Positions 18,222 through 50,339 of a DNA stretch of 58,568 bases are shown piece after piece. How positions within the stretch are numbered: the first letter of the stretch is position 1; each line of letters starts with the position of its first letter. This DNA comes from Christensenellaceae bacterium (GTDB taxonomy: Bacteria; Bacillota; Clostridia; Christensenellales; DTU072), in NCBI GenBank assembly GCA_031288735.1, contig JAITQU010000114.1:1-58568 (forward strand). The letters run 5' to 3'. The position numbers and the translations under genes are program-made. Below the pieces are notes generated by a model. It ran no database searches, was not told the DNA's origin, and saw nothing but the letters and a program-made list of their open reading frames with translations.

Positions 18222-18965
18222 GTGTTTACACTGAAAGTGAAAGAATTACAGAAATACTCCAAAAAGCTGGATTACACCTATAGTTTCGGTTCGTTTCCTA
18301 CACTTGAACTACTTAAAAATCGACAAGAACAAGTTAAAGCAGTGATAATACACCCTTCTATCACGGAAGAAATTTATAAAAACGTCAAGCAATATTGCAC
18401 TGATTACAAAATTTTCCTCTTAGAAAACGAACGTATTTTTGCCCGTATTTGTAATAAAGAAAATATTTTTCTAATAGGCGTAGTTCGAAAGTATGAAGAA
18501 AAACTAGGCTCTGATGCCAATCATGTGGTTATTGTAAGTCCTAGTGATATGGGAAATCTAGGTACAATAGTTAGAACTTGTGTTGGATTCGGTATACAAA
18601 ACTTAGCTCTCATCGAACCTGCTGCAGATGTTTTTAACCCAAAAACTATTCGTGCATCTATGGGTTCTTTATTTTCGATAAAATTTCAAAGTTTTCCCAG
18701 TTTTGAACAATACACACAGCAGTTTGGTAAGAAACGAAAATTATATTCATTTATGCTAAACGGAAAAAGGAAACTTGGTTCTTTTTCTCATACTAAAACA
18801 GTTCCCTATTCTCTTATTTTTGGTAATGAGTCGAGTGGGCTTGGCGATAGTTATCTTGAAATCGGTCAAAGCATTTTCATAAAACACACAAATAATATAG
18901 ATTCTCTAAACTTATCTCTTGCAGTTGGTATTGCAATTTATGAATTTACTAAGTTGGTTTTTTAG
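18222..18965 (+). CDS. TrmH/SpoU-family RNA 2'-O-ribose methyltransferase (candidate rRNA-modifying self-resistance enzyme)
   Basis: SPOUT motifs are present: VIVSPSDMGNLGTIVRT, LIFGNESSGL and IDSLNLSLAVGIAIYE. An AGGAG RBS precedes the GTG start. The stop abuts the PPTase ATG (TAG ATG). Confidence 0.8.
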   Translation: MFTLKVKELQKYSKKLDYTYSFGSFPTLELLKNRQEQVKAVIIHPSITEEIYKNVKQYCTDYKIFLLENERIFARICNKENIFLIGVVRKYEEKLGSDANHVVIVSPSDMGNLGTIVRTCVGFGIQNLALIEPAADVFNPKTIRASMGSLFSIKFQSFPSFEQYTQQFGKKRKLYSFMLNGKRKLGSFSHTKTVPYSLIFGNESSGLGDSYLEIGQSIFIKHTNNIDSLNLSLAVGIAIYEFTKLVF

Positions 18966-19670
18966 ATGAATATTTATACATATGATGCTAACATAATACA
19001 AAAAAAACTCAGGGTGTTTTGGTTAGAAATTTGTAATGATTTAGACTTTGTATTATTAGAGCAAATACGAAAAATGTTTGAAGCACAAACACCACAATAT
19101 ATTTTTCAGAAAGATATGATGCGACATACCTGTGCTATTTTATTAGCAGTTTACGCATGGAAAAAGGAATACAGCGAATTCCCATTTACTATGATCCTTC
19201 GTGATCTAAACGGAAAACCATATTTTTCGAATTGTTCTGACAAAAAACATATGCTATATTTCAACTTAACTCATTCTGGTGATATTGCCATGTGTGTGAC
19301 AGGCGCATCAGAAGTTGGGGCAGATATAGAACAAATTCAAAAAATACCGACTCAAGTTGCAAAACGCTATTTTGATCTTACTGAGCAAGAGAAATTTTTC
19401 AAAACCACTCTTGACAAACAGGATGAAGTATTTTATCAAATTTGGACAAAAAAAGAGAGTCTACTTAAAGCAATTGGGCTTGGTCTCAGAGGATTAGGAA
19501 AAAATGTAGAAAACGATTGGATTTGTACCCCGCTTTTCATTCGTGAAGGGTATGCAGCATCAGTGTGTTGCAAGGGTGAATACTCTGTTTTAATAGAATC
19601 GATTTCTTCTAATGATCTAATGGGATTTTGCCAAAATATCTGCAACAATGAAAGAGGGGATGGGGGATGA
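18966..19670 (+). CDS. Sfp-type 4'-phosphopantetheinyl transferase
   Basis: The Sfp motifs NGKPYF, FNLTHSGDIAM, VGADIEQI and WTKKESLLKAIGLG are present. Confidence 0.9.
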   Translation: MNIYTYDANIIQKKLRVFWLEICNDLDFVLLEQIRKMFEAQTPQYIFQKDMMRHTCAILLAVYAWKKEYSEFPFTMILRDLNGKPYFSNCSDKKHMLYFNLTHSGDIAMCVTGASEVGADIEQIQKIPTQVAKRYFDLTEQEKFFKTTLDKQDEVFYQIWTKKESLLKAIGLGLRGLGKNVENDWICTPLFIREGYAASVCCKGEYSVLIESISSNDLMGFCQNICNNERGDGG

Positions 19671-20369
19671 GTGGCTATTAAACTGATTGCAATTTCATAT
19701 GCTGGCGGCAGTTCTTTTAGTTACAGTGCATGGCGAAACTACCTACCATCATCTTTCGCTCTTTTGACTCCAGATTATGCTGGCCATGGTAAGCGATTCC
19801 ATGAACCTTTAGCTGAAAACTTTGAAAATATGGTTTTAGATATGTACTGGCAAGTAGTAAAAGACTGTGCAGGATCAGTTGTGTTGTATGGACACAGTTT
19901 AGGTGCTATGATTGCAGTATATACCGCACAACATTTATATCAACAAAATAAATTTATCCCACGAGCATTAATTTTGGCGGCTTGTCGAGGACCTGAAATG
20001 TTTAAAAACGAGGTACACACTACTCTTTCAGATGATCAACTACTTACATATTTGATAAACGTGCGAAGCCTCCCTTATGAAACTTTAGAAAGTCGTGAAT
20101 TTAAATCCTATGTTTTACCAGGAATTAGAAATGATTTTCGAATTGCAAATCAATTTGAATGTCCTTCGTTGATTCTTCCACCTTGTCCAGTTTTGTGCAT
20201 AAATGGAAAACAAGACTATAGCATAACTGATGATGCAGTAAATAACTGGCAAAAGTTTAGCTCTCAACAGATTAAAAATATACGAATTTCTGGTAATCAT
20301 TTTTTCCTAGAAGATGAAGTAGAGCTGACTTGTAGACTAATTATAGATTATTTAGAGCAACTTGTTTAG
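19671..20369 (+). CDS. Type II (editing) thioesterase
   Basis: This is an alpha/beta hydrolase with the GHSLGAMIA nucleophile elbow and a C-terminal GNHFFL His motif. Length is 232 aa. The GTG start immediately follows the PPTase stop. Confidence 0.85.
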   Translation: MAIKLIAISYAGGSSFSYSAWRNYLPSSFALLTPDYAGHGKRFHEPLAENFENMVLDMYWQVVKDCAGSVVLYGHSLGAMIAVYTAQHLYQQNKFIPRALILAACRGPEMFKNEVHTTLSDDQLLTYLINVRSLPYETLESREFKSYVLPGIRNDFRIANQFECPSLILPPCPVLCINGKQDYSITDDAVNNWQKFSSQQIKNIRISGNHFFLEDEVELTCRLIIDYLEQLV

Positions 20370-20533
20370 CATACCTAATTTTGTACCACGACAAACGTAT
20401 GAAAGAAATAAAAAGATCAAAGGGAGAAAAAATGATAAACCAACCTCTAAAATAGGCGGATTGGACTATTTTTATGGATTTAAAAAAATATTATATAATC
20501 TATCATAGTTGAAAAAAATAAAGGGAGGAAGCT

Positions 20534-21235
20534 ATGATAGACAAATGCAGTCACTGTTGAAGTGAGAAATACGTATAAAAATGGGAAGGCAGGAGGAAAG
20601 CAAAGGTATATATATAAGGAATGTGGACGTTCATTTGGATGAGGCAAACACAAGCTATCAGAGAAAATATTTGCAGTGCAGCTATACAATAACAATGTAT
20701 GAATAAGAAAGATAGGATTCTCTTGTGGAGGAAGTCATTCATTAGTAATAAAATGTATAAAAATCTGAGTAGTAAGGTAAACAGAGAGAGAAAAGTGGAA
20801 AGAAAAGAACCTGATATAATAGAGCTCGATGAGATATATGTATATATAAAAAAACAAGAAAAGGAAGAGAAAAAGAGTTTATTTAAAAAACTTAAATGCC
20901 TTTATGCATATATGTATAAAGGCTAAAATGACAAAAGAATATTGTTGTAAGAGTGTAGTCAAAAGCAGCTTTAAAGAATATGTAGTTAACAATAACATAC
21001 CAAAAGTGATAGAAAAATTAAAATCTGGTCTGATTATGTAAAAAAGAATGTGATGCGCCAAGACAATACATGTTAGAAATGGAGGGAGACCTTTTAGATA
21101 GAGACTGACCAAGCAGATCAATCAAACAACTGTATGGTGCTGGAAAGCGAAAGCGTTTGGTATTGAGTGATGCGGAAAAGGTGTTAAGAAAACATCATGT
21201 AAATTGTACAAAGATCAACGAAAGTGAACTGACCG
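20534..21235 (+). pseudogene. IS1-family transposase pseudogene
   Basis: A GGGAGG RBS precedes ATG 20534. The frames read VKNGKAGGKQRYIYKECGRSFG (InsA-like zinc finger), an HTH-like IRKIGFSCGGSHSLVIKCIK, then EPDIIELDEIYVYIKK. More distal remnants are SDYVKK... and ...KAKAFGIE. Many in-frame stops are present. Confidence 0.55.
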
Positions 21236-21599
21236 AAAAGGCGTCGATAATTTAAAAATTCGCTAAAACATGGATTCCACATTTGTCCATGGATAAATGC
21301 GGAGATAGGAACTTGTAAGAGACCGCACAACGAACGGCAAAGGCAGGAAAAGAGTACAAAACAGGCTTCAACAGAGCAACTTGGGAACTTGCATGAAGTA
21401 AAGAGAACGCAGGGGCGGGTTAGTCTGTAGTAGCGAAGAAGAGCAGGAAACTGCTTGGAGCGAAGACGAAAAATAAGTCTTGTGGTGGAAACCAAAAGAT
21501 AAGTAACAAAAGCTGGATGAAGGGAGACTTTCATGTCCAGTTGTGCGTCCAGAGAAGGCCGGAATGTTCAGCGAGATGATAGTTTTCGCCGAGACACAA

Positions 21600-21906
21600 G
21601 TAGAAGTCTCGTAACTAAGGTAGCAATATTAAGAGAGATCGAAGTACTGAAGCCTACTGAAGAAACCATTTCAGAGTAGGTAACTCTAGCAGATGTTTTC
21701 GGGTACATTAAGGATTGGATGGAAAAGAAGGCAAGACGCCATCTGATGAAAAATAGAAAGAGAAAAGACTGCGGCTGAGAAAGAAGTGGTATTCGAAGAT
21801 TCACAACTGGGGTCAGAGTTACAATTAGTTGCTTATTATTTCTAACAAAAATTAGCAATGCAAAAAGGTAACTTTAACAACTTTACACAATCTTTTTTAC
21901 AGTCCC
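21600..21906 (+). mobile_element. Second IS256-like 3' end fragment (transposase C-terminus and right terminal repeat)
   Basis: The segment 21781-21906 aligns with 18020-18116 (...aagtggt.t.c.aa.attca.aa.tgg.gtcaga.ttacaat.agttgcttattatttc..acaaaaatta.caa...ctttacacaatcttttttacagtccc). The frame reads KEGKTPSDEK*KEKRLRLRKKWYSKIHNWGQSYNQLLII. Confidence 0.6.
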
Positions 21907-21987
21907 GATTTTTCAAACGACCTTTTACAAACTGCTTTTTCCTTTCATGCGTTTTTTCTGATTTTGTACCATAAAGGGGTAGCGTTA

Positions 21988-24900
21988 ATGATTTATTGTG
22001 ATTTGCGTGCACAAACAATAGACATACTACCGCTAACACAGTTGCAGCAAGAAATGTATGCCTCCATTTCACTTGGCCTCTGTGATTACAAGGAACAAAT
22101 ACATATTAATCTTAAACAAACTCCAGATTGTGATATTTTACGCCAAGCACTTGAAAATGTTGTTTCAAGTCAACCTGCATTGAGAAGTGTTTTTCGTCAA
22201 GTCACATCTAAAAAGCCTACACAGATTGTATTAAAGGATATAATACTTCCGTTTTATGTAGATTGCGATCCTCCTGAATTAGACGTAACTTCAGAACCTT
22301 GGAATCTATCGGTTAGTACAGCTAGAAACAGATTGTCTTTGCTGTATAACCATATTGTGATGGACGGTTGGAGTATGGCAATTTTATTTAAGCAGCTTTT
22401 TTCAGGATATGAAAGTATTTATTCTGGGGAAACATGGAATATTCAGTCCTCATCCACAATGCGAACACTTTTTTCCATACGAAAGAATAGAGATACTGCA
22501 AAAAATGAAGTGTTTTGGCGTGATATTCTTTCAAATTGTTACCCGACACTACTTAGCGACAATATTTGTTCTATAGACAGTTCGAAAGAAGAAAGTTATA
22601 AATGTTCTGTACCTCAAGAAATCACCCAAAAACTTTTCAATAAAGCAAAAGAGCTGTGCGTCACCCCATCAGTTTTGTTTTATGCAGTATGGGCAATATT
22701 GCTTGGTTCGTTTACAGGAAGTAAAAAAGTTTGTCTAGGTGTGTTACTTTCTGGTCGTGGGAATAAAAATGTTTCTTTTGACACAATTGGAATGTATGTT
22801 CAGTCTATTCCTCTTGTTACAAATCTCGAAGGTGATTTTTCAGACATTTGTCATGAAATTTCATGTTTTCTCAGATGTCCAGAAGTCAACGCTTTTGAAG
22901 CAGGTGAAGACGCACTTATTTCAAGCGGATTTTCACGTCGACAAGAATTATTTGACACATTGGTAGCAGTTGAAAATTATCCATTGGACGCAACGGAAAC
23001 GAGTTGGCAAGCTTTAAAAATCAATTCATATGACTATTATGAACGCCCTTCTTATCCCTTTACTTTGCAAATTCGAATGGGTAATACGACAGATCTGATG
23101 CTAACATCAACTAGAGATGAACTATTCGGCAATTTGAAGTTAGTTTTAAATTGTTATGAAGGCTTTTTACAGCAAATAGCAAATGGAGTTACAGAATTAT
23201 CTGAGCTGAAAATTTGTAATGTTTTCAACGAAGAAGGTTTTTCTATACCCTTCTCAACACCTTCTACTTTAGATAGTCTTATACGAGAAGGGTGTTTTAC
23301 TGGCGGTGACAAAATCGCGATTTCTGATGGTGATGAAACTTGGACGTACCAAGAACTTTTGGAACAGGCAGAATGTTGTGCAAAAGGGCTTGTATCACTT
23401 GGTGTAGTACCTGGTGACTCGGTTGGAATTTGCATGGAACGTAGTGCCAGACAGCTTATAGCTGTTTATGCAGTCATACTGGTTGGTGGGATTTATGTAC
23501 CATTTTCCGATTCTATCCCAGCAATCCGAGCGAATGATATGATAGTGCAAGCCGGTATACAGCGTGTAATTTGTCATACCTTACCTAATGATTGGCAAGT
23601 AGAACCTGTTTTGTTCGACGATTGCTTTAAGTATCCTGAAATACTCCTTCCAAATATTTCCAAAGATTCTAGTAGAACTGCATATATCCTGTTTACTTCT
23701 GGAACTACTGGTCGACCAAAGGGCTGTATGGTTAGCCATAATTCTTTATATAATCGATTACTTTGGAATTGCATACATTTAGGTTTAAGACCGGAAGAGC
23801 GGCAACTTTATAAAACACCTATAACATTCGATGTTTCTCTGATTGAAATTTTTTCAATCTTTGTAGGACGATTTACGCTTTACGTACTACCTCAGGGAAA
23901 CGAAAGCAGAGCAGATTGCCTTGTTGAAACCATTAAAAAAAATAAGATTACATATCTTCATTTTGTACCGTCTATGTTACATACTTTTTTAGGTTACCTA
24001 GACGCTTTTGAACAAGAAAAGTGTCTTGAAACAATTCGTATAATGGTTTGCAGTGGTGAAATTTTACCGTCATCTCTTGTAAAAAATCTTCTGCAGAGAA
24101 CAATTTGCAAAAATATGCAAATGTACAATCTTTATGGACCTACAGAAGCATCCGTTGATGTCAGTGTTCATTCCTGTACTGTAGATGAACTCTTGCCCGA
24201 AACGCCGATTGGTTTACCGATTTGGAACACCGGACTGCGGGTTTTGGATCTGTGGTATCGTTCATTACCCAATGGTATTTGCGGAGAACTGTATATTTTT
24301 GGCAGTAATTTAGGGCAGGGTTATGTAAATAACCTAGAGCAAACAGCAGCTAATTTTCTAATATTACCAGATGGAAAAAGAGCGTATCGTACTGGTGATA
24401 TTGCATATCGATTGCTGAATGAAGAACTTGTGTTGATTGGACGCCGAGACGATCAGATAAAATATAACGGTGTGCGTATCGAAATTTCTGAAATTTATGA
24501 AACAATGATGGAAAGTGGTATGGTTAAAGGAGCCGCCACTTTGCTTTATAAGGGAAATCCTGACCGTTTGATTGCTTTTTACGTTGGTGAAAAGGAAAAT
24601 GAACAAAATCTTCGTAAGTATTTGTCCAGTCGGATACCTTCTCATATGCTACCAAGCGACTATTGTAAAATTGACTCACTGCCCAAAACTGCCCATGGAA
24701 AGCTGGATAAAAACTATCTTTTAGAGCAATTTAACTTGCATAATCACTTAAGGAAAGAAATAAATTTTCAGTACAATGAAAACAATGAAATAGAACGTAG
24801 TGTAGCTGAAATTTGGTGTCAATTAATTGAAACAGATAGAAAATTTTTACCTGAAGATAATTTCTTTGCTTTTGGAGGAACATCACTCCTGCTAATTCGT

Positions 24901-27900
24901 ATGCAAATTGAAATCCGTAAGCGATGGAAAGTAGAACTTCCAGCGCATCTTATCTATAAATCTCCTCTTTTGGGACACATATGCAATTTAATTCAAACAG
25001 CTTATACCGGACAAGCTATACAAAAGGCAACAAAAAATTCTGTTTCTATATTAAATACCGCACAAGAGACTATTGCTAAATTTCAATTTTTAAATCCAAG
25101 CAACACGGCCTATAATATGCCCATTTGCTTCCGCCTTTTACCTTCTGTACGCGCTCAAGATGTTCTTGGGCATATTTCTCAAATGATAAAAGAGAATCAT
25201 TGGCTACGACTTACGGTTAAGTCTACAGAAAAAGGCCTTTTAGCAGACACAGTGGAATACACACAACCCCATTGGGAAGAATCTCATTGTACTTCGAGTG
25301 ATATTCTAGAGCGAATTTCCAGTTTTGTGCGTCCATTTTCACCTGACAAATTAATGATACGTGGTGCAATCCTTCGGTGTGAACAGGAAGAATATGTTTT
25401 ACTTGATTTGCATCATTTGCTGTGTGATCAGGCAGTTTCACAGTTTTTAGTTGAATCTTTACTTAATCGAATGGATGGAAATATTAAGCCGCTTGAAGTT
25501 CCTGTTTTTAAATCTGAAATGCTGCTATCAAGTGGCGACACTTCTCCTAAAATATTCCCAGCTACCAATGGAAAAGTTCTTGATCAAATCAAGACAAATC
25601 ACCCAAATCGACTCGGCCAACTAAAGAGAAAAGGTTTTTGCTTTTCTGTGAAAGAAAATCAGATGGTTTATGATGCTTGTGCACAATATGGCGTTAGCGC
25701 TTTTTTAGTATTATTTACAGGTTTTTTCATGTTTTCTTCTCGTATTGCTGATAGTAATAATTTAACAATAGGTACAAATACTACATCTGATACGCTGCAA
25801 TCTGCTGCTATGAGTCTACGTGTTTTACCGATACAAATGCAATTTAATTCTTCTGATACTTTTGAAACGTTACTTATGCAACTGAATAAAGCTTTTGCCA
25901 ATGCTTTAGCATACATGGAGGGTTTTAGTCTTGGACAATTTGATGTAATGTTTGTACGGGAAGAATCGCCCTTCAACAATGATAGATGGAAAAAATATTT
26001 CCATGAAGTTTCTTACATAAATACGACAAGCAAGTTGGGTTTGACTTTGTTTTACAAGGAAATAGGTAAAGGCTTTACTTTTTCTTTTGATTATGATGCA
26101 GGGCTGTTTGATTCACTAACAATACAGAATTTTGTAGAGAGTTACCGGTTTTTACTTTTCGAGGGATTAACCCATCCAAAACAATCTATATCTGAATTTC
26201 AAACTATGCCACAAGAACAGCAAATATCGCACACTAGTTGCCGTGGTTTAAGTACGCCCTTACCTAATCAAACTATTCAAACTATATTTTTGGATTGTTG
26301 TAAAAAAAATCCTAATGCAATCGCAATCTATGATAAAGAAAATTGGAGCTATCGAAAACTGTTAACGCTAGCATCAAAAATTGCTGCATCGCTTATTGAG
26401 CGTGAAGATATAGGTAATTTGATCGGAGTTCTACTGCCGCCCTCAGCAGAATATTTGGTTACTGTATTTGGCATTCTTCTTGCAGGAAAAGCATTTTTGC
26501 CTTTAGATATACAAAATCCAACTCAGCGAAATGCAGCGATTCTAAAGGATAGCGAAGTTATTTTGTGCGTAAGTAATCAAGGCATAAAATTCCATACTAT
26601 TTGTTGCCTTACCGTAGAAGAACTTTCTTCACATACATTGCCAGTACAATGCCAAGGGAATATGAATGATAACGTTTATTGTATTTACACTTCAGGTAGC
26701 ACAGGTAAACCAAAAGGTTGCGTGATAAGCCAAACAAATGCATTAAACTACCTGCAATGGGCAAACAGTTTCTACCTAAATAACAAAAAGGGATGTTTTG
26801 CATTTTTTACTTCACCTGCTTCGGATATGACCATTACCTCTACATTACTTCCTATAATGTTTGGACATAGTGTTGTTATATATCCGCAAAGCGCGCGGTC
26901 CATTTTAGATGCATCAAATGATGCTCGGGTCACAGTGCTAAAAGCAACCCCTAGTCATTTAAATTTAATCAGAGAAAAAAGAATGTCTTCGATTCAAACA
27001 ATAATTGTAGGCGGAGAGCAACTTACAAGTGCTCTTGCCGCAAATTTATCTAGTCTTTGGAAAAGTCCGCCAGATATATATAATGAATACGGACCAACTG
27101 AGTCAACAGTAGGTTGTATGATTTACAAATATAACCCAAAAGATCCTTGGGCAGCAGTTCCTATTGGTACCGCAATTGACAATATGCAGATATCTATTTT
27201 AGATAGCAAGGAGCGTCCTTGCATACCAGGTGTTTCTGGGGAACTTGTTTTACAAGGTCGAAGTGTTATAGCTGGATACCTTAATCAATCAACTAATACT
27301 GAAGAACGGTTTGCTCAGTTGTTAGATGGTACTTGGCAATACAAAACGGGTGATTTTGCTCATATGTGTGCCGATGGACGGATTATTTATGAATCCAGGA
27401 GGGACAATCAATTTCAGTTAAGCGGATATCGTGTGGAATTGGGTGAAATTGAACAGGTTGCAAAAGAGACTGGAGGCATTGAAGAAGCTTGTGCAATAAT
27501 CCATGAAAATCAAGAAGGCAATAGTAGACTTATACTTTATTGTGTGACTAACTCTACAGAATATCGTGATGAAGTTCAACTCAGAAAGATACTATTTCAA
27601 AAAGTACCTCGCTATATGATTCCTGGCCAAATCGTGTTTTTGGAGCATCTCCCGCTAACTTCTAGTGGAAAAATTGATCGTAATATTCTTATTAAGAACA
27701 CAGTTATAGAAGGGATGCCATCGGATAATACTGTCCGTTTTTTAAGTACTTGTTGGAGAAAAATTCTTGGAAACTCTAATTTTACTCTCAATGATGGTTT
27801 TATGGAAGCTGGAGGCAATAGCCTTTCTATTGTTGCCCTCCAACAAGAAATTTCCGTACAATATCCAGAAATTACCGTAGAGAATTTATTTTGCTATCCA

Positions 27901-36386: not shown

Positions 36387-36390
36387 GAAC

Positions 36391-40472: not shown

Positions 40473-41468
40473 ATGGTAATGGATCGAATTTCAGGAATTA
40501 TTCCCTACAACAAATGCTTTTACTATAACTGTTTTCACAGTCATTTATTTCCAATCATAGAGAAAAATCGTGGTAATTGTACCCTTTTTCTCGCAAATGG
40601 GATTCCTTATTTTCAAATACAAACAAATGAGACAAGCAAACGTATTTTGGTACGATTTGCATTCCAATCTGACTATACAGTTCTTTTAGCGCAACAAGGT
40701 ATTTCAGTAAGGAAGTTTTCCGCAAGTGATTGGAAGCAAGTCTTAGATAAAGCCTTACTGAATGAAGAGCCTGTGATTGTTGGTGTTGATGGTTGGTACT
40801 TAGATTATCGTGATGATCTTTATCATAAAATACATTGGCCACATACGCTCTTGATATTTGGTGTGGACCAAAGTAATAAAACATATTTAGCTATAGATCA
40901 ACCTACCAGGGAAAACATGCAATTTTCAGAGTGGACACTTACAAGCCATGTGTTAGAAAGTGCGTATGAAGGTTTTTGTAAACAAAAAGGTCATGATCCT
41001 TTGTTTTCTGCTGACGAAATGATACTGTTTCATTTTGAGGGTAACCCAGACCCTTGTACTGCAAAGGAAATAGCGATATTTTGGCATAAAAATCGAAAAA
41101 TGCAGCGAATGAAAATTTTTCAAGGACTCTATAAATTGGCAGAATTTAAATGTTACTTAATGAATTGTTTAGATATGTCTTCTAGTAGTAGTGACGCATG
41201 CGCATTTGTTCTGGAGGGGCTAAATGATATTGTAAAACAAAAGCGTTGGGAAGTGTTTTTTCTAAAGTATTTGTTACCATCGCATGAGAATTGTGCAAAT
41301 ATAGCACAAAACCTCCTAAACTATTGGAGTAATATTAGAAATTTAGTTGGGTATGTCTTTCTATCTGGGTATTCACGAAAAAAAACCGTGCAGCATATTT
41401 ACGAAAAATATGAAATTGTGCTCAAGACAGAGCGAGAATACGCTGTCTTGGCAGAAGAAGAGGTATAG
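40473..41468 (+). CDS. BtrH-like / C39-like papain-fold Cys-His protein (putative carrier-protein-dependent acyltransferase or peptidase), paralog 1
   Basis: An N-terminal Cys context (YYNCFHSHLF) is followed by EPVIVGVDGWYLDYRDDLYHKIHWPHTLLIFGVDQSNKTYLAIDQP, with an all-helical C-terminal half. The pattern is shared with 44345-45319. The family assignment is from memory of the BtrH_N/DUF4872 architecture and is not verified. Confidence 0.45.
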   Translation: MVMDRISGIIPYNKCFYYNCFHSHLFPIIEKNRGNCTLFLANGIPYFQIQTNETSKRILVRFAFQSDYTVLLAQQGISVRKFSASDWKQVLDKALLNEEPVIVGVDGWYLDYRDDLYHKIHWPHTLLIFGVDQSNKTYLAIDQPTRENMQFSEWTLTSHVLESAYEGFCKQKGHDPLFSADEMILFHFEGNPDPCTAKEIAIFWHKNRKMQRMKIFQGLYKLAEFKCYLMNCLDMSSSSSDACAFVLEGLNDIVKQKRWEVFFLKYLLPSHENCANIAQNLLNYWSNIRNLVGYVFLSGYSRKKTVQHIYEKYEIVLKTEREYAVLAEEEV

Positions 41469-43130: not shown

Positions 43131-44341
43131 TGAAAAATTGGAACAAAAAAATTCAGTATGCCAAAGTGCATATTTGTGGACAAGAAACGGAGATATTTGG
43201 TATTCCTGATAGACTATATCAGCTAGCATCCAATAGTAAAGCGTTTACTGCTCTCGGAATTTTGCTTTTAGTCCAGCAAAAAAGATTGAAATTGGATTTG
43301 CCAACCGATGCCTATTCTGACAAGCTTTGTTTCAGTGACAAGCACGGTTTGCAACAAACAGTAACTATTCGCCAATTACTAAACCATTATGGAGGGCTTG
43401 ATAAAAACACCATACGTTTTCAGCATGAGGGCGAAATGGATATAACAGATGCAGCACAAGCTATTACAAAAATGCCGCTAAAGAGTGCCCCCGGAACCAA
43501 GTTTTGTTATGCTACAGGCGGATATATTGTATTAGGCAGAATTATTGAGATAATTAGCGGTCAATCCTACGGTGAGTTTATTAGAAAAAACATATTTGCT
43601 CCTCTAGACCTAGACGCAACAGATGTGGAGCAAGTGCCACTGCGTGGTTTAAAAGATGGTCTCTTTGGGGTACGCTATGCTAATTGGAAAGGTTGTGGAG
43701 CGTTTGCTCCTGCTGGCTACTTGATTAGTAGCCCAAAAAACTGCGCTCGTTGGTTAGAACTTTTGCTTGGGAATATTGAAATTGAAAATGAATACAAGAT
43801 ATTGCTGCAACGTAGTTTAGATTTACGTGATTACGTGCAAACAAAGGAAAACGGCGTTTTTTATGGGTTTGGTTGGTACTATGATAAAAGGCAAGACGTG
43901 TATTTTCATGATGGAAGAAATCCTTATTTTTCTTCTTGTATTGCATTTTCGTCCGCAGGAAAAGGGGCAGCAGCACTGTGCAACATTCACTTGAGTCGTT
44001 CTGTAGAAGAAGTATTCGAATTTATGGGGTTGGAAAAAGAAAAAAGATTGCCACATAATTTTAAAGCAATGATTGTACGAATTGGGATTGCATTATTATT
44101 TATATCGTGCGCTTTAGTTTTGCATGTAGTTGGAGTTGGTGTAAAAGCGATTGTCTTTTCAGTGTTTGCAACGACTATAACACAAATAGCGATATACCTT
44201 ATTTCGGGTGAGCTTTCAATTCGACAACAATATCTTTGGTTACCAGAATGGCTATTTGTACTACTATGGGTGTTTCCCGCCGGAATTGTTATTTTGATTA
44301 TGGGTGTTTTAAACCTGTTTTCTATACGAGGAGGATTATAA
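43130..44341 (+). CDS. S12 / beta-lactamase-fold serine hydrolase with three C-terminal transmembrane helices (ClbP-like architecture)
   Basis: The SxxK motif is S34-N-S-K37, with the Ser codon at 43229. FCYATGGYIVLGRIIEIISGQSYGEF is the YxN-region pattern and FHDG is the HxG motif. Three hydrophobic helices lie in aa about 316-400 (IVRIGIALLFISCALVLHVVGV, AIVFSVFATTITQIAIYLISG, WLFVLLWVFPAGIVILIMGVLNLF). No N-terminal signal peptide is evident. Confidence 0.8.
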   Translation: MKNWNKKIQYAKVHICGQETEIFGIPDRLYQLASNSKAFTALGILLLVQQKRLKLDLPTDAYSDKLCFSDKHGLQQTVTIRQLLNHYGGLDKNTIRFQHEGEMDITDAAQAITKMPLKSAPGTKFCYATGGYIVLGRIIEIISGQSYGEFIRKNIFAPLDLDATDVEQVPLRGLKDGLFGVRYANWKGCGAFAPAGYLISSPKNCARWLELLLGNIEIENEYKILLQRSLDLRDYVQTKENGVFYGFGWYYDKRQDVYFHDGRNPYFSSCIAFSSAGKGAAALCNIHLSRSVEEVFEFMGLEKEKRLPHNFKAMIVRIGIALLFISCALVLHVVGVGVKAIVFSVFATTITQIAIYLISGELSIRQQYLWLPEWLFVLLWVFPAGIVILIMGVLNLFSIRGGL

Positions 44342-44344: not shown

Positions 44345-45319
44345 ATGCTTCAATTAAATTATCGAACTCAAATTACAGAAGTTCCTGACTGCATGATGGG
44401 GTCTATTGTAAACGCAGCATTATACTATGGGATGGACTATGCATATTTATATCGCGGAATATGGGTATTTCGCTTTGAAGCCAAAAGTGAGCAGAACGAT
44501 AGTTTTTGGAAAAGGCTATCCACCGATGAACTTGTCAATTCACATAAGCAGATTGAACTATACCATGGGCTTCAACTTCAGCGTTATGAAGCCTGTGACA
44601 AGGAAGAATTTCTTTCCGTGCTTAAAAAAGAATTACAAAATGGTAATCCTGTCGCAGTTGGATTTGATGCTTTTTATTGTCCATGGTCTGGTGTTTATCG
44701 CAGACATACCTTACTGCATTTCTGTCTAATAGTAGGCTTGGATGAAAAAAGTCGTGAAATTCTTTGTGCGGACCCATACTTTATGGCGAATATTCGTCCA
44801 TGTCCTATCGACGAAATGATGGCAGGCTTTTTAGAGTTTAGCCTATTTCGCAAGATACAACCCGTATGCGGTTTAGAAACATGGAAACAGGATGTTCTGC
44901 TTTGTGCAAAACAAAAAATTGATGATGACGTGTTCACCCAAATGCGGGAAATGAAGGATGAAATTTTAAATTCTCGTGGATTCGTTTCGGAAATTAGACA
45001 GCAAAATGATAAATATTCTTATGAATTGTTTTATCAAATAAAATATATTCATCATAGCAGAGTTAATCACGGAGAATTTTTGCGATACGTTGCAAAGCAT
45101 GTAGGTCAGCAGGCTCAAATGTTGAATAAAAGCGCAAAATGCTTAGATGAAGCGGGCAAATTGTGGGCAACAACAGGGCAGTGTTTTACTAAACTTGCTT
45201 ATCTGGATGATAAAAAAAGAACCGAAAAATTGATTGCTGGAATTGCTGAAAGGATGGAAAAATGTATTGAGTTAGAATACCTTGCTGCAACACATATTTT
45301 AGAAAGTATAGGAGAATGA
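44345..45319 (+). CDS. BtrH-like / C39-like papain-fold Cys-His protein, paralog 2
   Basis: The N-terminal Cys context is VPDCMMGSIVNAAL. It is followed by NPVAVGFDAFYCPWSGVYRRHTLLHFCLIVGLDEKSREILCADPY and a helical C-terminal half. An AGGAGG RBS is present. Confidence 0.45.
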   Translation: MLQLNYRTQITEVPDCMMGSIVNAALYYGMDYAYLYRGIWVFRFEAKSEQNDSFWKRLSTDELVNSHKQIELYHGLQLQRYEACDKEEFLSVLKKELQNGNPVAVGFDAFYCPWSGVYRRHTLLHFCLIVGLDEKSREILCADPYFMANIRPCPIDEMMAGFLEFSLFRKIQPVCGLETWKQDVLLCAKQKIDDDVFTQMREMKDEILNSRGFVSEIRQQNDKYSYELFYQIKYIHHSRVNHGEFLRYVAKHVGQQAQMLNKSAKCLDEAGKLWATTGQCFTKLAYLDDKKRTEKLIAGIAERMEKCIELEYLAATHILESIGE

Positions 45320-45322: not shown

Positions 45323-47242
45323 ATGGATGATGGATATTACCTTTCTACATATACACATATTGATTCGCTGGGACATTTGTATCGACTATCTTTACGTCAT
45401 GACCAAAGTATGGCTCTCTGGAAAAAAGATGGTGAAAAAATTCGTCTTATACGTTATTGGGAATTTGAGAGAATATCAGGGTTAAAAAAACACGATTTAT
45501 CTTTCTATTCTCAAGAGCAAGCATGTACTGCAATCAATACAATGTTGCTTTCATTTGGACTTTCGCTTAAAGATATGCAAGCTGTTTGGGGCACACCAGG
45601 TTTAGAACTGGTAGGACAAATTTCTTACTATAATTCCGAAAATCCATGCCCGTTACACAGTTTATGTCATTTGTTTTCTGGTATGCTAACTGATAGTGAA
45701 ACTTTTTATAAAAAGAAAATTTTAGCTTTAGCTTTAGACGGAGGGCCAGATAACGTTATAGATCAAGGTGCAAGGGAAAAACAATTTTACTGGGGTGCGT
45801 TTGTTGACCGAGGGGGTATTTCCTATTTTGAAGTTCCATCTCCGGGTGCTTTTTGGAGTTTAGCGCGATTTGAACTTGGTATGGAAGAGGGGTCAATGAT
45901 GGCTCTGGGTAGTGCCGTAACTTCTCATCTACCCAATGAAAAGAGTCTTGCTGCAAAGGCGCCTATTGTTTTAAATGGAAAAGGATTTGATGCCGCTTAT
46001 CGCTGGCTGAAAAAAATAATCGAGGTAACTAGGATGTTAAGTGCTGATGAGATTTTAGAGTATGATCCACGGTTTTCTCTGGAAGATAACCAAATCGGCA
46101 TCATAATAAAAGTTATTCAACGAGCATCGTTTAATATTTTAGAAGATATTGTTGCAAAGGCGGTAAAGCAGTATAATCTTGATCCGTCTGAAGTAATTTT
46201 GAGCATGTCCGGCGGATTTGCACTAAATTGTCCGGCAAATAGTCATTTAATGAAAAAATTTGGTTTTCAAAGTTTTCAAACTTGTCCATGTGTGAGCGAT
46301 AGCGGGATTGCGTTGGGCATGGGTCTGTTTGAGTTTTATGCACAAATGGAGACATTCCAGTTTCGTTTAGAAAATGCCTATTATGGATGTGAAGATCGCC
46401 GTACGATTTCTGAATTAACCAACATGTGGGGGTGTTATATCCATTCTGTCAGTACATTTGATCGAGAAAAATTTGTAGTAGATTTAACATCATCTCCTCT
46501 TATTTGGTTCGATGGTGCTGCTGAGATTGGTCCGAGAGCTCTTGGTGCACGTAGTATTTTGGGAGATCCACGTACTCATAAAACAAAAGATCGACTCAAT
46601 GAGGTCAAACAGCGGGAATGGTGGCGACCTGTCGCTCCAATTGTTTTGGATCAAGAGCAACACAATTGGTTTGAAAATGCATTCTCATCGCCTTATATGC
46701 TTTGTACAAGTAAAGTAAAAGCAGAAAAAGCAAAACAGGTCGTGGCAGCACTGCATCTGGATAGGTCGGTTAGACTCCAGTCCATAAAACAAGAGAACAA
46801 TCCTCGTCTATATGATGCTATTTTGGCTTTTTATGAAGCAACGGGGATACCTCTTATTTGCAATACATCACTCAATGATAAAGGTGAACCCATCATAGAT
46901 CTTTTTGAGGAATGTATCAACTTTGCATTGCGCAAATGTATTTTTATTGTATATTTTAATGGTATGAGAATAGAACTAAAAAATTCAGAAAAATATTCAA
47001 AAAAAGAACCACTTCTACGTAATATTTTACTGTTTGATCCACTGAACAAAGAAGATATAGAAACTGCAAAAAAACAGTGGAACCCACATGGACTTACTCA
47101 TAAACAGGTAGATTTGTACTTGAATATACCAGAATTTAGAAACTATGATATCCGCAGCGAAAAGGATGTGCGTATGCTTGTCAGAATACTTGCACAGTGG
47201 GCGAGACTTAATGACACAGTTTGGAAAGCAATGCTTACATAA
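45323..47242 (+). CDS. NodU/CmcH/TobZ-family carbamoyltransferase
   Basis: The N-terminal RHDQSMALWKKDG carries the HDxxxA metal-site context. The C-terminal motifs are EIGPRALGARSILGDPR, REWWRPVAPIVL, HLDRSVRLQSI and ICNTSLNDKGEPI. Confidence 0.9.
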   Translation: MDDGYYLSTYTHIDSLGHLYRLSLRHDQSMALWKKDGEKIRLIRYWEFERISGLKKHDLSFYSQEQACTAINTMLLSFGLSLKDMQAVWGTPGLELVGQISYYNSENPCPLHSLCHLFSGMLTDSETFYKKKILALALDGGPDNVIDQGAREKQFYWGAFVDRGGISYFEVPSPGAFWSLARFELGMEEGSMMALGSAVTSHLPNEKSLAAKAPIVLNGKGFDAAYRWLKKIIEVTRMLSADEILEYDPRFSLEDNQIGIIIKVIQRASFNILEDIVAKAVKQYNLDPSEVILSMSGGFALNCPANSHLMKKFGFQSFQTCPCVSDSGIALGMGLFEFYAQMETFQFRLENAYYGCEDRRTISELTNMWGCYIHSVSTFDREKFVVDLTSSPLIWFDGAAEIGPRALGARSILGDPRTHKTKDRLNEVKQREWWRPVAPIVLDQEQHNWFENAFSSPYMLCTSKVKAEKAKQVVAALHLDRSVRLQSIKQENNPRLYDAILAFYEATGIPLICNTSLNDKGEPIIDLFEECINFALRKCIFIVYFNGMRIELKNSEKYSKKEPLLRNILLFDPLNKEDIETAKKQWNPHGLTHKQVDLYLNIPEFRNYDIRSEKDVRMLVRILAQWARLNDTVWKAMLT

Positions 47243-47278: not shown

Positions 47279-48031
47279 ATGGAGCAAATTAAATCGCATA
47301 ATTTAAATTGGGATCACTATGCGCATGGGTACAGTTCGGATATAGAAAGTCAAATGGATGATTTTCACCGTAATGCTTGGGTAAAACTGTTTAGTGAATA
47401 TATGGACAAAAATTTACCTCTTGATATTTTAGATGTTGGTACTGGTCCAGGATTTTTTCCCATGATACTGGGTGAACAAGGTCACCGAGTTACAGGAATT
47501 GATTTTTCCGCATCTATGCTGAGGGAAGCAGAAAAAAATACTAAAAAGCGAGCAGTTTCTTGTACGCTACTGCAAATGGATGCTGCGCAGTTGAGTTTTT
47601 CAGATGCATCTTTTGATTTTGTTGTTTGCCGAAATATGGCATATTCGCTAGCAGAGCCAGAGTTGGCTTACAGTGAATGGATACGTGTGCTTCGACAAAA
47701 TGGAACACTTCTGGTTTTTGATGCAAATTGGTTTCATTTTTTATTTGATACCGAAGAAAAAGCGAAAATCGATGAATTTTTAGAAGATTACCATGCACAA
47801 GTGGGCAAAGTTCATGAAACGTATGAGAAAGAGCGAGAATTATTTTTTGATCATATAAGCATACGTCCATTATCGCGTGTAAAACGTCCGGATTGGGATT
47901 GTAGTTTCCTAGAGTCTTTAGGTGCAAACGTTACTTTAGATAGCACAGTTGGAAACCGTGTTCATACTTCATTAGAAGTGTACACGCATACGCCAACACC
48001 ATTATTTTTAATAGAAGCTATCAAAAAATAA
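47279..48031 (+). CDS. Class I SAM-dependent methyltransferase
   Basis: Motif I is ILDVGTGPGFFPMILGEQGHRVTGIDFSASML, and the post-I and II regions include FDFVVCRNM. A GGAGAGG RBS is present. Confidence 0.85.
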   Translation: MEQIKSHNLNWDHYAHGYSSDIESQMDDFHRNAWVKLFSEYMDKNLPLDILDVGTGPGFFPMILGEQGHRVTGIDFSASMLREAEKNTKKRAVSCTLLQMDAAQLSFSDASFDFVVCRNMAYSLAEPELAYSEWIRVLRQNGTLLVFDANWFHFLFDTEEKAKIDEFLEDYHAQVGKVHETYEKERELFFDHISIRPLSRVKRPDWDCSFLESLGANVTLDSTVGNRVHTSLEVYTHTPTPLFLIEAIKK

Positions 48032-48101
48032 AAACATTTTAAATGAAACTATTTGAACAAGTGGAGGAATTATACTGAAAATACTGATAGTTCGTACGGC
48101 T

Positions 48102-49631
48102 ATGCAAGAAGATATGGAAATAGAGGAGCCATTAGGAGTTTTATATTTAGTTGGCTATATAAAGGATTATGTTCAAAATGCACTAATCGATTTGATAGAT
48201 GCTCACGTGACACGAGAAGCTCCTAAAATGGTTGCAGAACAAACAAGGCAGAAAAATTATGATTTTATACTGATCTCTACATTATCCATTGGAAGCGGCT
48301 ATGCATATGAATTAATCAAATGGATTCGTCAAAGTTCTAAAACTACTATTATCATGGGGGGTCCACATGTTACGGCATTACCTGAAGAATGTCTTAGGGC
48401 CGGGGCAGATTATTGTGTAATTGGTGAAGGGGAGGCAACTGTAACCAATTTATTGAAAATATTAATAAAAGGGGAAGATCCTAGCTCGGTAGATGGAATT
48501 GCCTTTTTTAGTGAAGGTAGTGTGATCCGTACGCGTCAGAGAGAATTAATTGATTTAAAAGTATTAAATTTTCCTGATTTTTCGCTATTGCCATCAGACT
48601 CCACGTATAAAACCAGTATTCATATACAAAACAGTAATGAAAAAGCTCTTCCAATTATGGCTTCTCGCGGGTGCGTTAATGATTGTCCGTTTTGTAGTTC
48701 TAAACTGACATGGCGTAGAAAACTTCGATTTCGTACTGTGGGTAGTGTGGTAAATGAGATAGAGTTTATAGTTATGAAATATAGTGTGCACCATTTTCAC
48801 TTTCAAGATGATGACTTGCTATTAAACAGATCTTTTTTACGCTCTTTGTGTCAAGAAATCAAACGTCGTAAACTTGATATTAAATTTTGTTTTATAACAT
48901 CAGTTAAAGCCTTTCTCGCGCTAGCTGATGAAGAAGTAGAACTGCTTCAAGAATCTGGGATGCGAGTTATAGAAATTGGTATTGAAAGTTTAATACCTGA
49001 AGTACTCCAATACTTGAAAAAAACATATACGATTTATGATATTCCACTTCTTTCCAGCCGTATTTCTAAATTCAATATTGACGCACGTCCATTGATTATG
49101 TATTTGGTTCCAGGCGAAACCTATACAGGATATCGAAATCAGGCAAATCTATTTCAAGAAACTTTAGGTACAACTTCATATTTGAAGAAAAATTGGAATG
49201 TTAATCCTTTTGTTTTTACCACATATGCATCTGCGTATACGCCCTTACCTGGTACTGCATTTCATTGCACTGTGAATTCTTTGGGAATCCAACTGAAACA
49301 GTCACTCAAAGACTGTAGCACAGGTGTAATCTCTTTTCTTCCAAACTCACTTTTAGAAGATTGTCCTCAAAAGAGTGGAAAACTTTTATCAAAAAATATT
49401 CATGAGCTAATCAAACAAGCAAAACAACATTCATTTTTTCCGCTCAATATATGCTTAGAAGAATACCTAAATGTGGTGTGGGAAAAAATTGATGCTATAC
49501 GGACAACGAAAGAAATCGCAAATGAATTATATTCCATGTATTCGACAAAAATAACGTATCATCAAACATTAACTGCGACCACTTTGATTTTAATTATACT
49601 TGCGGAATCCGGATTTATTTTGTCTAATTAA
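48102..49631 (+). CDS. B12-binding-domain radical SAM enzyme (class B, likely C-methyltransferase-type)
   Basis: The radical SAM cluster motif is ASRGCVNDCPFCSS (CX3CX2C). It is preceded by a Rossmann-like cobalamin-binding N-terminal domain (EPLGVLYLVGYI ... IIMGGPHVTALPEE). The in-frame upstream sequence (L)KILIVRTA follows GGAGGA at 48063-48068, so the true start may be a non-ATG codon near 48072-48075. Confidence 0.85.
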   Translation: MQEDMEIEEPLGVLYLVGYIKDYVQNALIDLIDAHVTREAPKMVAEQTRQKNYDFILISTLSIGSGYAYELIKWIRQSSKTTIIMGGPHVTALPEECLRAGADYCVIGEGEATVTNLLKILIKGEDPSSVDGIAFFSEGSVIRTRQRELIDLKVLNFPDFSLLPSDSTYKTSIHIQNSNEKALPIMASRGCVNDCPFCSSKLTWRRKLRFRTVGSVVNEIEFIVMKYSVHHFHFQDDDLLLNRSFLRSLCQEIKRRKLDIKFCFITSVKAFLALADEEVELLQESGMRVIEIGIESLIPEVLQYLKKTYTIYDIPLLSSRISKFNIDARPLIMYLVPGETYTGYRNQANLFQETLGTTSYLKKNWNVNPFVFTTYASAYTPLPGTAFHCTVNSLGIQLKQSLKDCSTGVISFLPNSLLEDCPQKSGKLLSKNIHELIKQAKQHSFFPLNICLEEYLNVVWEKIDAIRTTKEIANELYSMYSTKITYHQTLTATTLILIILAESGFILSN

Positions 49632-49736
49632 AAAACAAACACCCCTACTTATTTTAAGACTTAAAATTATAATATAATACAAATTGGTAGTATTAAAGTT
49701 TGAAAAAACAAGAACATATAATCGGGAGCGATTTTT

Positions 49737-50339
49737 ATGTCAGATTACTACGTATACCGTGTTGACAATGGGCTTTACATCAATGTTACTAATCGTTGTT
49801 CTTGTAATTGTGTGTTTTGCGTACGGAAATCAAGCGATGGTATTAACCAAGGTGAAAGCTTATGGCTACAAAAGGAGCCGTCTCTGGAGGAAATTACACA
49901 AGATATCGTTACTGCTGACCCGACTGGTTATTACGAGGTTGTTTTTTGTGGATACGGTGAACCCACGGAATGTCTGGAAACAGTTCTTGATGTTGCTAAA
50001 TTCATTAAAAAAAATTATTGCATCCCTATTCGTCTCAATACAAATGGGTTAAGTGACTTAATCTACGGTTGCTCCACCGCTAAAGAGATGGAAGGGTTAA
50101 TTGACACAATTTCTATAAGTTTGAATGCACCTACCAAAGAAGAATATCTTTCCATATCTAACCCTCGTTTTGGTCTTGGTTCTTTTGATGCAATGTTGCA
50201 ATTTGCTCAAGACTGTAAAAAGTATATTCCTAATGTCTTATTTACTGTAGTAGATGTCATAGATTCTGAAAAAATTGAAACTTGTAAAAAATTAGCAGCT
50301 CAAATGAACATAGAGTGTCGAATCAGAACAAAGATATAG
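49737..50339 (+). CDS. Small radical SAM protein (about 200 aa; resembles the TatD-associated radical SAM family)
   Basis: YINVTNRCSCNCVFCVRK carries CX3CX2C. FCGYGEPTE and RLNTNG are also present. Composition still matches the island (24/60 GC at 49801-49860). Confidence 0.7.
   Translation: MSDYYVYRVDNGLYINVTNRCSCNCVFCVRKSSDGINQGESLWLQKEPSLEEITQDIVTADPTGYYEVVFCGYGEPTECLETVLDVAKFIKKNYCIPIRLNTNGLSDLIYGCSTAKEMEGLIDTISISLNAPTKEEYLSISNPRFGLGSFDAMLQFAQDCKKYIPNVLFTVVDVIDSEKIETCKKLAAQMNIECRIRTKI

Follow-up and report, generated by a model that had tools for sequence, protein, structure and literature searches.

An intact-looking trans-AT peptide-polyketide gene cluster with probable prodrug-type assembly logic in a Christensenellaceae metagenome-assembled genome

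The window analyzed here, a stretch of 58,568 nucleotides, is a whole contig (JAITQU010000114.1) of a metagenome-assembled genome (MAG) labelled 'Christensenellaceae bacterium', and it carries a biosynthetic gene cluster that joins nonribosomal peptide synthetase (NRPS) and polyketide synthase (PKS) domains. Between positions 18222 and 49631 (about 31 kb) there are 17 co-directional genes, all on the + strand, whose open reading frames (ORFs) are uninterrupted and full length compared with their orthologues in related contigs; gene starts were picked to agree with these orthologues. From the gene of the larger megasynthase, NRPS1, to that of a B12-binding radical S-adenosylmethionine (SAM) enzyme the spacing between genes ranges from -23 to +70 nt, and the only exception in the cluster is a gap of 1618 nt between the type II thioesterase (TEII) gene and NRPS1. 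A preliminary description of this DNA had put about twenty uninterrupted + strand genes with almost no intergenic space into the interval 18222-50339. The strand and the intact frames stand, the count is 17 genes ending at 49631 instead, and the tight packing applies from NRPS1 onward but not to the TEII-NRPS1 gap. The gene set it had named, that is, a 4'-phosphopantetheinyl transferase (PPTase), a TEII, megasynthases, an acyltransferase (AT), acyl carrier proteins (ACPs) and tailoring genes, was recovered by Pfam. We think it probable that the interval is a functional-looking, horizontally mobile cluster for a hybrid peptide-polyketide.

The product would be made by the prodrug route, which is known from colibactin, zwittermicin, xenocoumacin, amicoumacin and paenilamicin and involves an N-acyl-D-Asn cap (ClbN/ClbP, XcnA/XcnG and ZmaO/ZmaM). 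The part of the cluster that points to such a cap is NRPS2 (36364-40452, 1362 aa), in which the domains were assigned by Pfam and the tail by profile. The two megasynthases have the accessions MDR3185966.1 and MDR3185972.1. The domain order of NRPS2 is a starter condensation domain (C), an adenylation domain (A) for Asn, a carrier domain (T) and a degenerate epimerization domain (E; about 39376-40449). The C domain (residues 12-410) aligns end to end with the lipo-initiation starters RzmA (7C1H, E 2e-19) and CDA-C1 (4JN3). The A domain has the specificity code DLTKIGEIGK, which is identical to that of ZmaO (DLTKIGEVGK) at 9 of 10 positions and is kept in 12 orthologues; it is predicted to select Asn. 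The tail of about 360 residues, absent from the domain list of the preliminary description, contains HHILADAVSW, DWNGR, EIGCYS and INFLGD, which resemble the E-domain motifs E2, E4, E5 and E7. As a single sequence the tail had no match in the PDB and a profile was needed. Built from eight NRPS2 tails, this profile has its best matches among the E domains of BacC, TycA, TycB and GrsA (9RDE, 2XHG, 6TA8 and 5ISW; E 6e-8 to 1e-4), the domain being short. The C-terminus, SEIDALFDD, is COM-donor-like, and over 1197 aa the protein is 27.7% identical to ZmaO (E 1e-129). NRPS2 is therefore a predicted, sequence-based candidate for an N-acyl-D-Asn initiation module.

NRPS1 (21988-32304, 3438 aa) has the order C(D-donor type)-A(Ser-like)-T-C-A(Asn-like)-T-KS-T-aminotransferase-C*, where KS is a ketosynthase and C* a C-like domain. 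According to Pfam, the first module comprises C1 (about 22021-23283), A1 (about 23305-24663) and T1 (about 24802-24993), and the second C2 (about 25051-26403), A2 (about 26461-27672) and T2 (about 27736-27933); these are followed by KS (about 27976-29295), T3 (about 29401-29613), a class III aminotransferase domain, AMT (about 29836-30993), and C* (about 31111-32301). The code of A1, DVIHVSLVDK, is Ser-like; in the same alignment ZmaJ reads DVWHFSLIDK, which matches the canonical Ser code. A2 has the Asn-like code DMTKIGEVGK. Apart from I/V and G/A changes, the codes are constant in all orthologue A domains recovered by motif search, at an overall identity of about 40%. The KS (residues 2005-2444) has an intact Cys-His-His triad with the motifs DSACSSG, HGTAT and GHLDS, is directly followed by a carrier and has no AT in cis; the KS, carrier Ser and AMT Lys motifs are intact and kept in 10 orthologues. 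A free-standing AT is encoded at 35163-36386 (Pfam Acyl_transf_1, E 4e-28), with GHSLGE and RAFH motifs, and is present in 11 of 12 related loci, that is, wherever the contig covers the position, at 34-43% identity. This free AT would serve the AT-less KS in trans, presumably with malonyl specificity. Of the features that had been anticipated, the three A domains, the single KS with no AT in cis and the in-line AMT were all found by Pfam, the last as a class III aminotransferase. The number of integrated carrier domains had been given as five, and we count four (three in NRPS1 and one in NRPS2) in addition to the two free ACPs. As had also been stated, there is no thioesterase (TE) domain in the cluster proteins according to Pfam, and no MbtH-like motif in a regular-expression search of the six-frame translation of about 14.7-51 kb. 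In the terminal C* domain the HHxxxDG motif reads YNGWIDG in the window and YN[GAS]W[IFL]DGWS in all ten orthologues, at a domain identity of 28-62%; judging from this motif, C* cannot use the canonical catalytic His, yet it is conserved.

The order in which the two megasynthases act is suggested by their C domains. The best PDB matches of NRPS1 C1 are C domains that follow E domains, namely those of McyB, TycB, BacC (residues 614-872) and SrfA-C. Since the C domain of NRPS2 is starter-like and C1 of NRPS1 is post-E-like, the assembly order would be NRPS2 and then NRPS1. The genes themselves are arranged the other way round, NRPS1 lying 5' of NRPS2 in every family member. If assembly followed gene order, NRPS1, which starts with a C domain, would initiate through lipo-initiation to give an acyl-Ser-Asn-beta-amino acid, NRPS2 would add a final Asn, and its C-like tail, which is indeed too degenerate for the Pfam threshold, would release the chain; the S12 peptidase described below would then be a resistance or trimming hydrolase. 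We consider this scheme very unlikely. The end-to-end match to starter C domains belongs to NRPS2, whereas C1 of NRPS1 matches D-donor C domains that follow E domains; the NRPS2 tail matches E domains, has E-type motifs and shares its terminal motif with ZmaO; the C-like domain that ends NRPS1 would be followed by another C domain, the first one of NRPS2; and an Asn starter module together with a ClbP-like peptidase is a hallmark of the prodrug route.

This peptidase, of family S12 (43130-44341, 403 aa), has ClbP (3O3V, E 1e-25) as its best match in the PDB, with the SxxK motif (SNSK) and the Tyr aligned, and shares 30% identity with the peptidase portion of ZmaM. It has about three hydrophobic segments at its C-terminus (residues about 310-403), as have four orthologues. 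The zwittermicin cluster (zma) of Bacillus cereus/thuringiensis megaplasmids is the closest characterized system that we reached and the best plasmid-borne relative, at 24-30% identity. ZmaO has the C-A(Asn)-T-E architecture that is predicted for NRPS2, the two proteins share an HHxxxDAVSW E motif and a C-terminal EIDxLFD, and a free AT, free ACPs, a TEII-like hydrolase and a PPTase are encoded in both clusters. The TEII of the window is 29% identical to the alpha/beta hydrolase adjoining ZmaO, and its AT 25% to the zma AT. In zwittermicin, too, the residue that comes after the D-Asn cap is Ser, and the molecule bears a carbamoyl group. The differences are nonetheless considerable. In the window there are no genes for hydroxymalonyl- or aminomalonyl-ACP, for 2,3-diaminopropionate synthesis or for the GNAT resistance protein; ZmaM is a peptidase-ABC fusion, whereas the S12 peptidase is unfused and lacks an N-terminal signal or membrane segment. 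The window adds the in-line AMT, BtrH-like transacylases, a family 4 glycosyltransferase (GT4), the B12-radical SAM enzyme and a SpoU methyltransferase, and its NodU-type carbamoyltransferase had no BLAST match among the ten zma proteins tested. With respect to colibactin, ClbP and the S12 peptidase share SxxK, the Tyr and a C-terminal three-helix membrane anchor, and ClbN has the C-A(Asn)-T-E architecture that is predicted for NRPS2. The S12 peptidase differs in having no signal peptide and beginning about 30 residues into the ClbP domain, and the downstream assembly line and tailoring genes are unrelated. The third resemblance is to iturin/mycosubtilin (MycA) and microcystin (McyE) synthases, which likewise have an in-line class III AMT after KS and carrier and before C. 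In that type of system the AMT turns a beta-keto thioester into a beta-amino acid. The KS of the window differs in lacking a cis-AT and in that the unit to be extended is an Asn residue and not a polyketide or fatty acyl chain, and the C domain after the AMT has no catalytic His and no downstream A-T module in cis. The prodrug-type logic suggested earlier agrees with the starter C domain, the ZmaO-like Asn code, the E-like tail, the post-E C1 and the ClbP-like S12 peptidase, and the iturin/microcystin-type AMT with the KS-T-aminotransferase-C arrangement.

The cluster is one member of a family. About 10 sequence clusters (39-68% identity) comprise the full-length relatives of NRPS1, and 13 comprise those of NRPS2, of which one is identical to the window protein and 12 are at 33-39% identity. 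All are metagenomic or from MAGs and are named at most generically, at the level of domains; beyond the family the next-best matches are ordinary NRPSs, about 27% identical over about half the length. There are at least ten divergent versions of the cluster, none characterized among the relatives found. Scans of the GTDB species-representative genomes with NRPS2 and the E-tail profile returned no family member (two unrelated E domains of 20-21% identity were found), and literature searches returned no characterized counterpart. The closest version, represented by two JGI contigs of one sample (L006 and L015 in our numbering of related loci), has 16 comparable genes in the same order at 58-82% identity. 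L012 has the gene order of the window and L007/L009 nearly so, and a second subfamily (L001, L004, L008 and L010) keeps NRPS1, AT and NRPS2, as well as the ACPs, the B12-radical SAM gene and GT4 where contigs reach that far, the remaining genes being variable. Relative to the sister cluster, the proportions of nonsynonymous and synonymous differences (Nei-Gojobori) are 0.10-0.24 (pN) and 0.57-0.79 (pS, saturated), respectively, in all 16 genes, with dN/dS of about 0.06-0.23 for those genes that allowed an estimate of dS. Over the long term all 16 genes have thus been under purifying selection; the comparison is not informative on the time since the debris described next was inserted. The two more general claims of the preliminary description, an unfamiliar gene combination and selection for function, are thus in line with the full-length relatives being metagenomic or MAG-derived only, with the zwittermicin cluster being merely 28-30% identical, and with the low pN relative to pS.

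The gap between TEII and NRPS1 (20370-21987) consists of degenerate mobile DNA and has no ORF with a Pfam match. It contains a group II intron RNA at 21081-21199 (Rfam RF01999, 45.6 bits against a gathering score of 36) and weaker, sub-threshold group II intron matches of domain V/VI type at 21508-21688; no reverse-transcriptase ORF accompanies these fragments in the gap. A 136-nt segment of the gap (21771-21906) is 80% identical to 17993-18116, so that a direct repeat lies about 100 nt upstream of both the SpoU gene and NRPS1. We considered a conserved leader or riboswitch for this repeat and rejected it: nothing aligns upstream of SpoU in L006, and the only Rfam matches nearby are the group II intron fragments. 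Given the missing alignment in the sister cluster, the repeat is probably derived from a mobile element rather than regulatory. L006 has no gap at all, its TEII overlapping NRPS1, and since this is the closest relative the gap would be a later insertion. The gap scan found no terminator-like site, so that read-through is possible; promoter-like sites in the gap did not exceed chance frequency, and the scan of the gap for promoters and terminators was uninformative.

These observations bear on the question of whether the cluster might be a silent or decaying relic, i.e. a horizontally acquired island that lost its promoter or was split by mobile-element insertion and is no longer expressed. Wrecked insertion sequence (IS) elements at both borders would fit such a history, as would 1.6 kb of debris from IS elements and group II introns that is missing from the sister cluster, a G+C content of 0.377 against 0.32-0.34 in the flanks, the lack of a pathway regulator and the chance frequency of promoter-like sites in the gap. 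On the other hand, each of the 17 ORFs has the full length of its orthologues with the catalytic motifs preserved, and in every gene compared divergence is much lower at nonsynonymous than at synonymous sites, which speaks for long-term and not for recent selection. In addition, the gap offers no terminator-like site that would prevent read-through, and the debris is old and degenerate, yet the genes flanking it are intact. Overall, we regard a relic as unlikely.

Two proteins encoded downstream of NRPS2 may be relevant to how the chain leaves NRPS1. BtrH2 (44345-45319) matches Pfam BtrH_N with 32.9 bits, above the cut-off of 29.7. Its AlphaFold model (pLDDT 86.4, pTM 0.87) is alpha/beta in its N-terminal half and all-helical in its C-terminal half, and the top folds found with Foldseek are AziU3, CtaG and CcbD (E 1e-8 to 1e-5), which makes BtrH2 a likely papain-like transacylase of the CtaG/CcbD/BtrH fold. 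An alignment of 16 BtrH2 sequences shows no change at Cys16, His125 or Asp143, whose spacing is like that of the CtaG triad, Cys11/His128/Asp144 (PMC12865890). BtrH2 sits in a tight group of 16 sequence clusters, several of which are on contigs already known to carry the gene cluster. BtrH1 (40473-41468) scores 27.8 bits with BtrH_N, just under the cut-off; hhalign relates it to the BtrH2 family with a probability of 90% and aligned His and Asp columns, and orthologues are present in L009, L012 and L015. It is probably distantly paralogous to BtrH2 and may likewise be a papain-like transacylase that depends on carrier proteins. Of the two BtrH-like proteins reported before, one (BtrH2) thus has the confirmation of a structure model, and the other depends on a sub-threshold Pfam match and hhalign. 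PDB sequence searches with both proteins gave no match. A HMMER search collected 1247 representative BtrH2 relatives, and in four of the five long relatives scanned (P0308, P0327, P0380 and P0333) the BtrH domain directly follows the last carrier domain of an NRPS or NRPS-PKS. As these distant relatives are fused at the position of a release domain, we propose that the transacylases take part in release, and BtrH-fold transacylases may be the best available account of the missing thioesterase. Compared with CtaG (closthioamide), CcbD/LmbD (lincosamides), BtrH (butirosin) and AsbE (petrobactin), the window proteins have a similar predicted fold, a similar triad spacing and carrier proteins nearby. 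They differ in their low identity (12-16%) and in the occurrence of two paralogues within a modular NRPS-PKS cluster that has no ATP-grasp or stand-alone ligase partner.

Between the two megasynthase genes, along with the AT, there are four further genes that may be connected with the transacylases. The first encodes a pyridoxal phosphate (PLP)-dependent decarboxylase of fold type III (32301-33335, 344 aa; Pfam Orn_Arg_deC_N), of the Lys/Orn/diaminopimelate/carboxynorspermidine type, whose best PDB match, end to end, is the Lys/Orn decarboxylase 5GJM. The NCBIfam matches lysA and nspC are far under their cut-offs, and orthologues of 340-350 aa occur in 7 loci. Its substrate may be a free amino acid, or a carrier-bound one as for BtrK and VinO. 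The second is a class I/II PLP aminotransferase (33337-34653, 438 aa; Pfam Aminotran_1_2) with a SFSK...GMRLG lysine motif and orthologues in L006, L007/L009 and L012. The other two are free carrier proteins, ACP1 (34670-34924) and ACP2 (34921-35166), both Pfam PP-binding and kept as a pair in related loci.

A decarboxylase of fold type III, small ACPs, an AT and BtrH-type transacylases found together are reminiscent of butirosin and vicenistatin biosynthesis. They might constitute a sub-pathway that decarboxylates an amino acid tethered to an ACP, in the manner of BtrK or VinO, and then puts the aminoacyl product as a side chain on an amine of the scaffold. The transacylases would then have no part in release, which would fall to the His-less C domain or be spontaneous. 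In BtrH and AsbE the donors are in fact carrier-bound and the acceptors are free amines (PMC12865890), and the two ACPs and the two BtrH-like proteins are co-conserved. Against this, no ATP-grasp or stand-alone adenylating enzyme is available in this subfamily to load the ACPs, the best solved relatives of the decarboxylase act on free Lys or Orn, and BtrH-like domains elsewhere occupy the release position of megasynthases. For these reasons we find the sub-pathway improbable, bearing in mind that it overlaps with the prodrug-type pathway that we favour.

Of the remaining tailoring enzymes, GT4 (41472-43130, 552 aa; Pfam Glycos_transf_1) has as top NCBIfam matches MshA and BshA, both N-acetylhexosamine (HexNAc) transferases and both below cut-off, and is present in every related locus that covers this part, at 39-74% identity. 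Carbamoylation, which had been predicted, is supported by a carbamoyltransferase of NodU/CmcH/TobZ type (45323-47242, 639 aa) that matches Pfam Carbam_trans_C (E 2e-51) and, below cut-off, NCBIfam NodU (E 6e-42), with orthologues in L004, L012 and L015. It is followed by a class I SAM-dependent methyltransferase (47279-48031; Pfam Methyltransf_11/25; orthologues in L009, L012 and L015) and by the last conserved gene of the cluster, that of the B12-binding radical SAM enzyme (48102-49631; Pfam B12-binding and Radical_SAM), which is 69% identical to the last gene of the sister locus L015. The latter enzyme may be a C-methyltransferase or have some other radical tailoring role.

At its other end the cluster begins with three genes that precede the gap. 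The first (18222-18965) encodes a SpoU/TrmH-family RNA 2'-O-methyltransferase (Pfam SpoU_methylase, E 1e-27), an identification that had not been made in the preliminary description of the interval. The protein has an L30e-like N-terminal domain, and its PDB relatives include AviRb (1X7O), NshR (3NK6) and TsnR (3GYQ). It fits no curated subfamily (NshR_TsnR, 44 bits against a cut-off of 425; RlmB, 61 against 160). The gene lies inside the cluster in three versions, those of the window, L006 (71%) and L007 (55%), at two different positions. Given this context, a role in self-resistance is the most economical reading, and the gene is a candidate for it. The other two genes encode an Sfp-type PPTase (18966-19670; Pfam ACPS and AASDHPPT_N; orthologues in L006, L007 and L008) and the TEII (19671-20369; Pfam Thioesterase, E 8e-27; GHSLG motif), which would be of the editing type.

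Based on these assignments, we can outline the prodrug-route pathway that we favour with moderate confidence. The Sfp-type PPTase would prime the four integrated and the two free carrier domains. NRPS2 would build N-acyl-D-Asn and hand it, by way of its COM-like tail, to the D-donor-type C1 of NRPS1. NRPS1 would add a Ser-like and then an Asn-like residue, its KS would extend the chain by two carbons with the help of the free AT, and the AMT domain would turn the beta-keto group into a beta-amine, so that T3 would carry acyl-D-Asn-Ser-(Asn-derived 3,4-diamino acid). There being no TE, R or canonical terminal C domain, and C* being His-less in every family member, the two transacylases of CtaG/CcbD/BtrH fold might release or elaborate the chain by moving acyl groups from carriers to amines. 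Their donors or acceptors might be held on the two free ACPs, or might be free amines from the decarboxylase and aminotransferase pair. GT4 would add a sugar, probably a HexNAc, and the carbamoyltransferase, the SAM methyltransferase and the B12-radical SAM enzyme would decorate the product. The membrane-anchored ClbP-like peptidase would cut off the N-acyl-D-Asn cap and thereby activate the compound, and the SpoU methyltransferase might protect the RNA of the producer, probably rRNA, which would point to the ribosome as the target.

Several considerations weigh against this outline. The release, tailoring, activation and protection steps are all inferred. The E domain of NRPS2 is short, degenerate and below the Pfam threshold, and reads DxNGR where E domains read EGHGRE. 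The C-domain subtypes were assigned solely by best PDB matches, and the Stachelhaus positions by alignment to a GrsA sequence in which all ten index positions were checked. The outline gives no role to the His-less C* of NRPS1, and in this subfamily we saw no enzyme for charging the free ACPs with amino acids, since only the AT is at hand. The resemblance of the SpoU protein to other methyltransferases is no more than generic and extends to housekeeping and resistance enzymes alike, and the 1.6 kb of debris parts the SpoU, PPTase and TEII genes from the remaining ones, which could affect expression. Finally, the S12 peptidase has no N-terminal signal peptide or hydrophobic segment, so that its catalytic domain may face the cytoplasm, unlike in the classical scheme of export followed by activation. 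We also considered an N-terminal truncation of this protein and rejected it: the ORF cannot be extended upstream, and orthologues of 396-411 aa begin at the same point. Four orthologues (L009 15764-16996, L012 16675-17865, L004 21857-23194 and L015 5091-6284) are likewise signal-less with about three C-terminal transmembrane segments, and the lack of a signal is therefore a trait of the family and not a truncation.

Taken at face value, the sequences suggest that the cluster is unusual in three respects: transacylases of CtaG type take the place of a thioesterase, the terminal C domain has no catalytic His, and the ClbP-like peptidase lacks a signal. One could go further and suppose that the family makes a new class of glycosylated, carbamoylated, cationic, ribosome-targeting pseudopeptides of uncultured Christensenellaceae-like anaerobes, in which stand-alone transacylases replace the thioesterase, the His-less C domain serves as a scaffold, the cap is removed on the cytoplasmic side, and rRNA methylation provides self-protection instead of compartmentation. 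As a whole, this is possible, if rather doubtful. Orphan clusters are common, and the value of this one lies in its testable predictions and in the poorly explored lineage of its host: our literature searches found no natural-product chemistry described for Christensenellaceae and related, rarely cultured anaerobes. The cluster being intact and its family conserved, it can be synthesized and expressed. The predictions include an N-acyl-D-Asn cap that would be a handle for mass spectrometry, a Ser-Asn-derived vicinal diamine core and a resistance gene that hints at the target. The results would widen two themes in enzymology, papain-like carrier-dependent ligases that stand in for a thioesterase on a modular assembly line, and peptidases of ClbP type that lack an export signal. 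Should the product prove bioactive, an anaerobic community would have yielded a new antibiotic scaffold.

The surroundings of the cluster are a mixture of housekeeping genes and mobile-element remains. On the left, up to 14748, the genes are those of ClpB, acetate kinase, L32, PlsX, a fab operon, RNase III, butyryl-CoA dehydrogenase and Etf. The fatty-acid operon (plsX, fabH, fabD, fabG, acpP and fabF; 5464-10725) is complete and lies 7.5 kb upstream of the cluster; its nearness is probably a matter of chance, although the acyl cap could come from such a system. The left border (14749-18221) is mobile-element debris with fragments of PF13683 and PF00872, namely an rve integrase remnant (16626-16814) and a Mutator/IS256 transposase (17035-17836) that is broken across three frames. 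A second rve remnant lies to the right of the cluster (55081-55599), and the preliminary description was thus correct in calling the surrounding IS elements wrecked. The raised G+C content of the block from NRPS1 to the radical SAM gene fits an acquired island. On the right flank there follow a TIGR04100 radical SAM gene, a protein of unknown family, a family 2 glycosyltransferase (GT2), an ABC exporter, the rve remnant and AdhE. The first of these (49737-50339, 200 aa) was considered as a member of the cluster and rejected: its TIGR04100 match, at 281 bits, exceeds the cut-off of 262, and the gene is missing in those related loci that extend over this side. Because of this absence the right end of the cluster is most likely at 49631 and not at 50339, and of the two radical SAM enzymes previously counted in the cluster only the B12-binding one belongs to it. 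Within 50472-54443 we noted a 422-aa protein without a Pfam family and with an apparent signal peptide, GT2, and the ABC exporter, in which membrane and ATPase domains are fused. The exporter (52713-54443), which we considered as a possible member of the cluster, is only weakly similar to the transporters of related clusters and to the ATP-binding domain of ZmaM.

The related loci differ in their accessory genes. L009 has an APH/choline-kinase-like gene (21406-22338) and L004 an Asn-synthase-like one (14141-15430). In L010 there is an extra stand-alone adenylating enzyme with a third ACP (19041-20773), and in L008 two ABC transporters and a split transketolase (988-8094). A small ORF after the B12-radical SAM gene of L015 (11877-12173) has no Pfam match on record and looks by eye to be of IS66 type. 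In L012, IS66-family genes (22754-24023) come soon after the last biosynthetic gene, which suggests that the family resides on mobile islands in different hosts.

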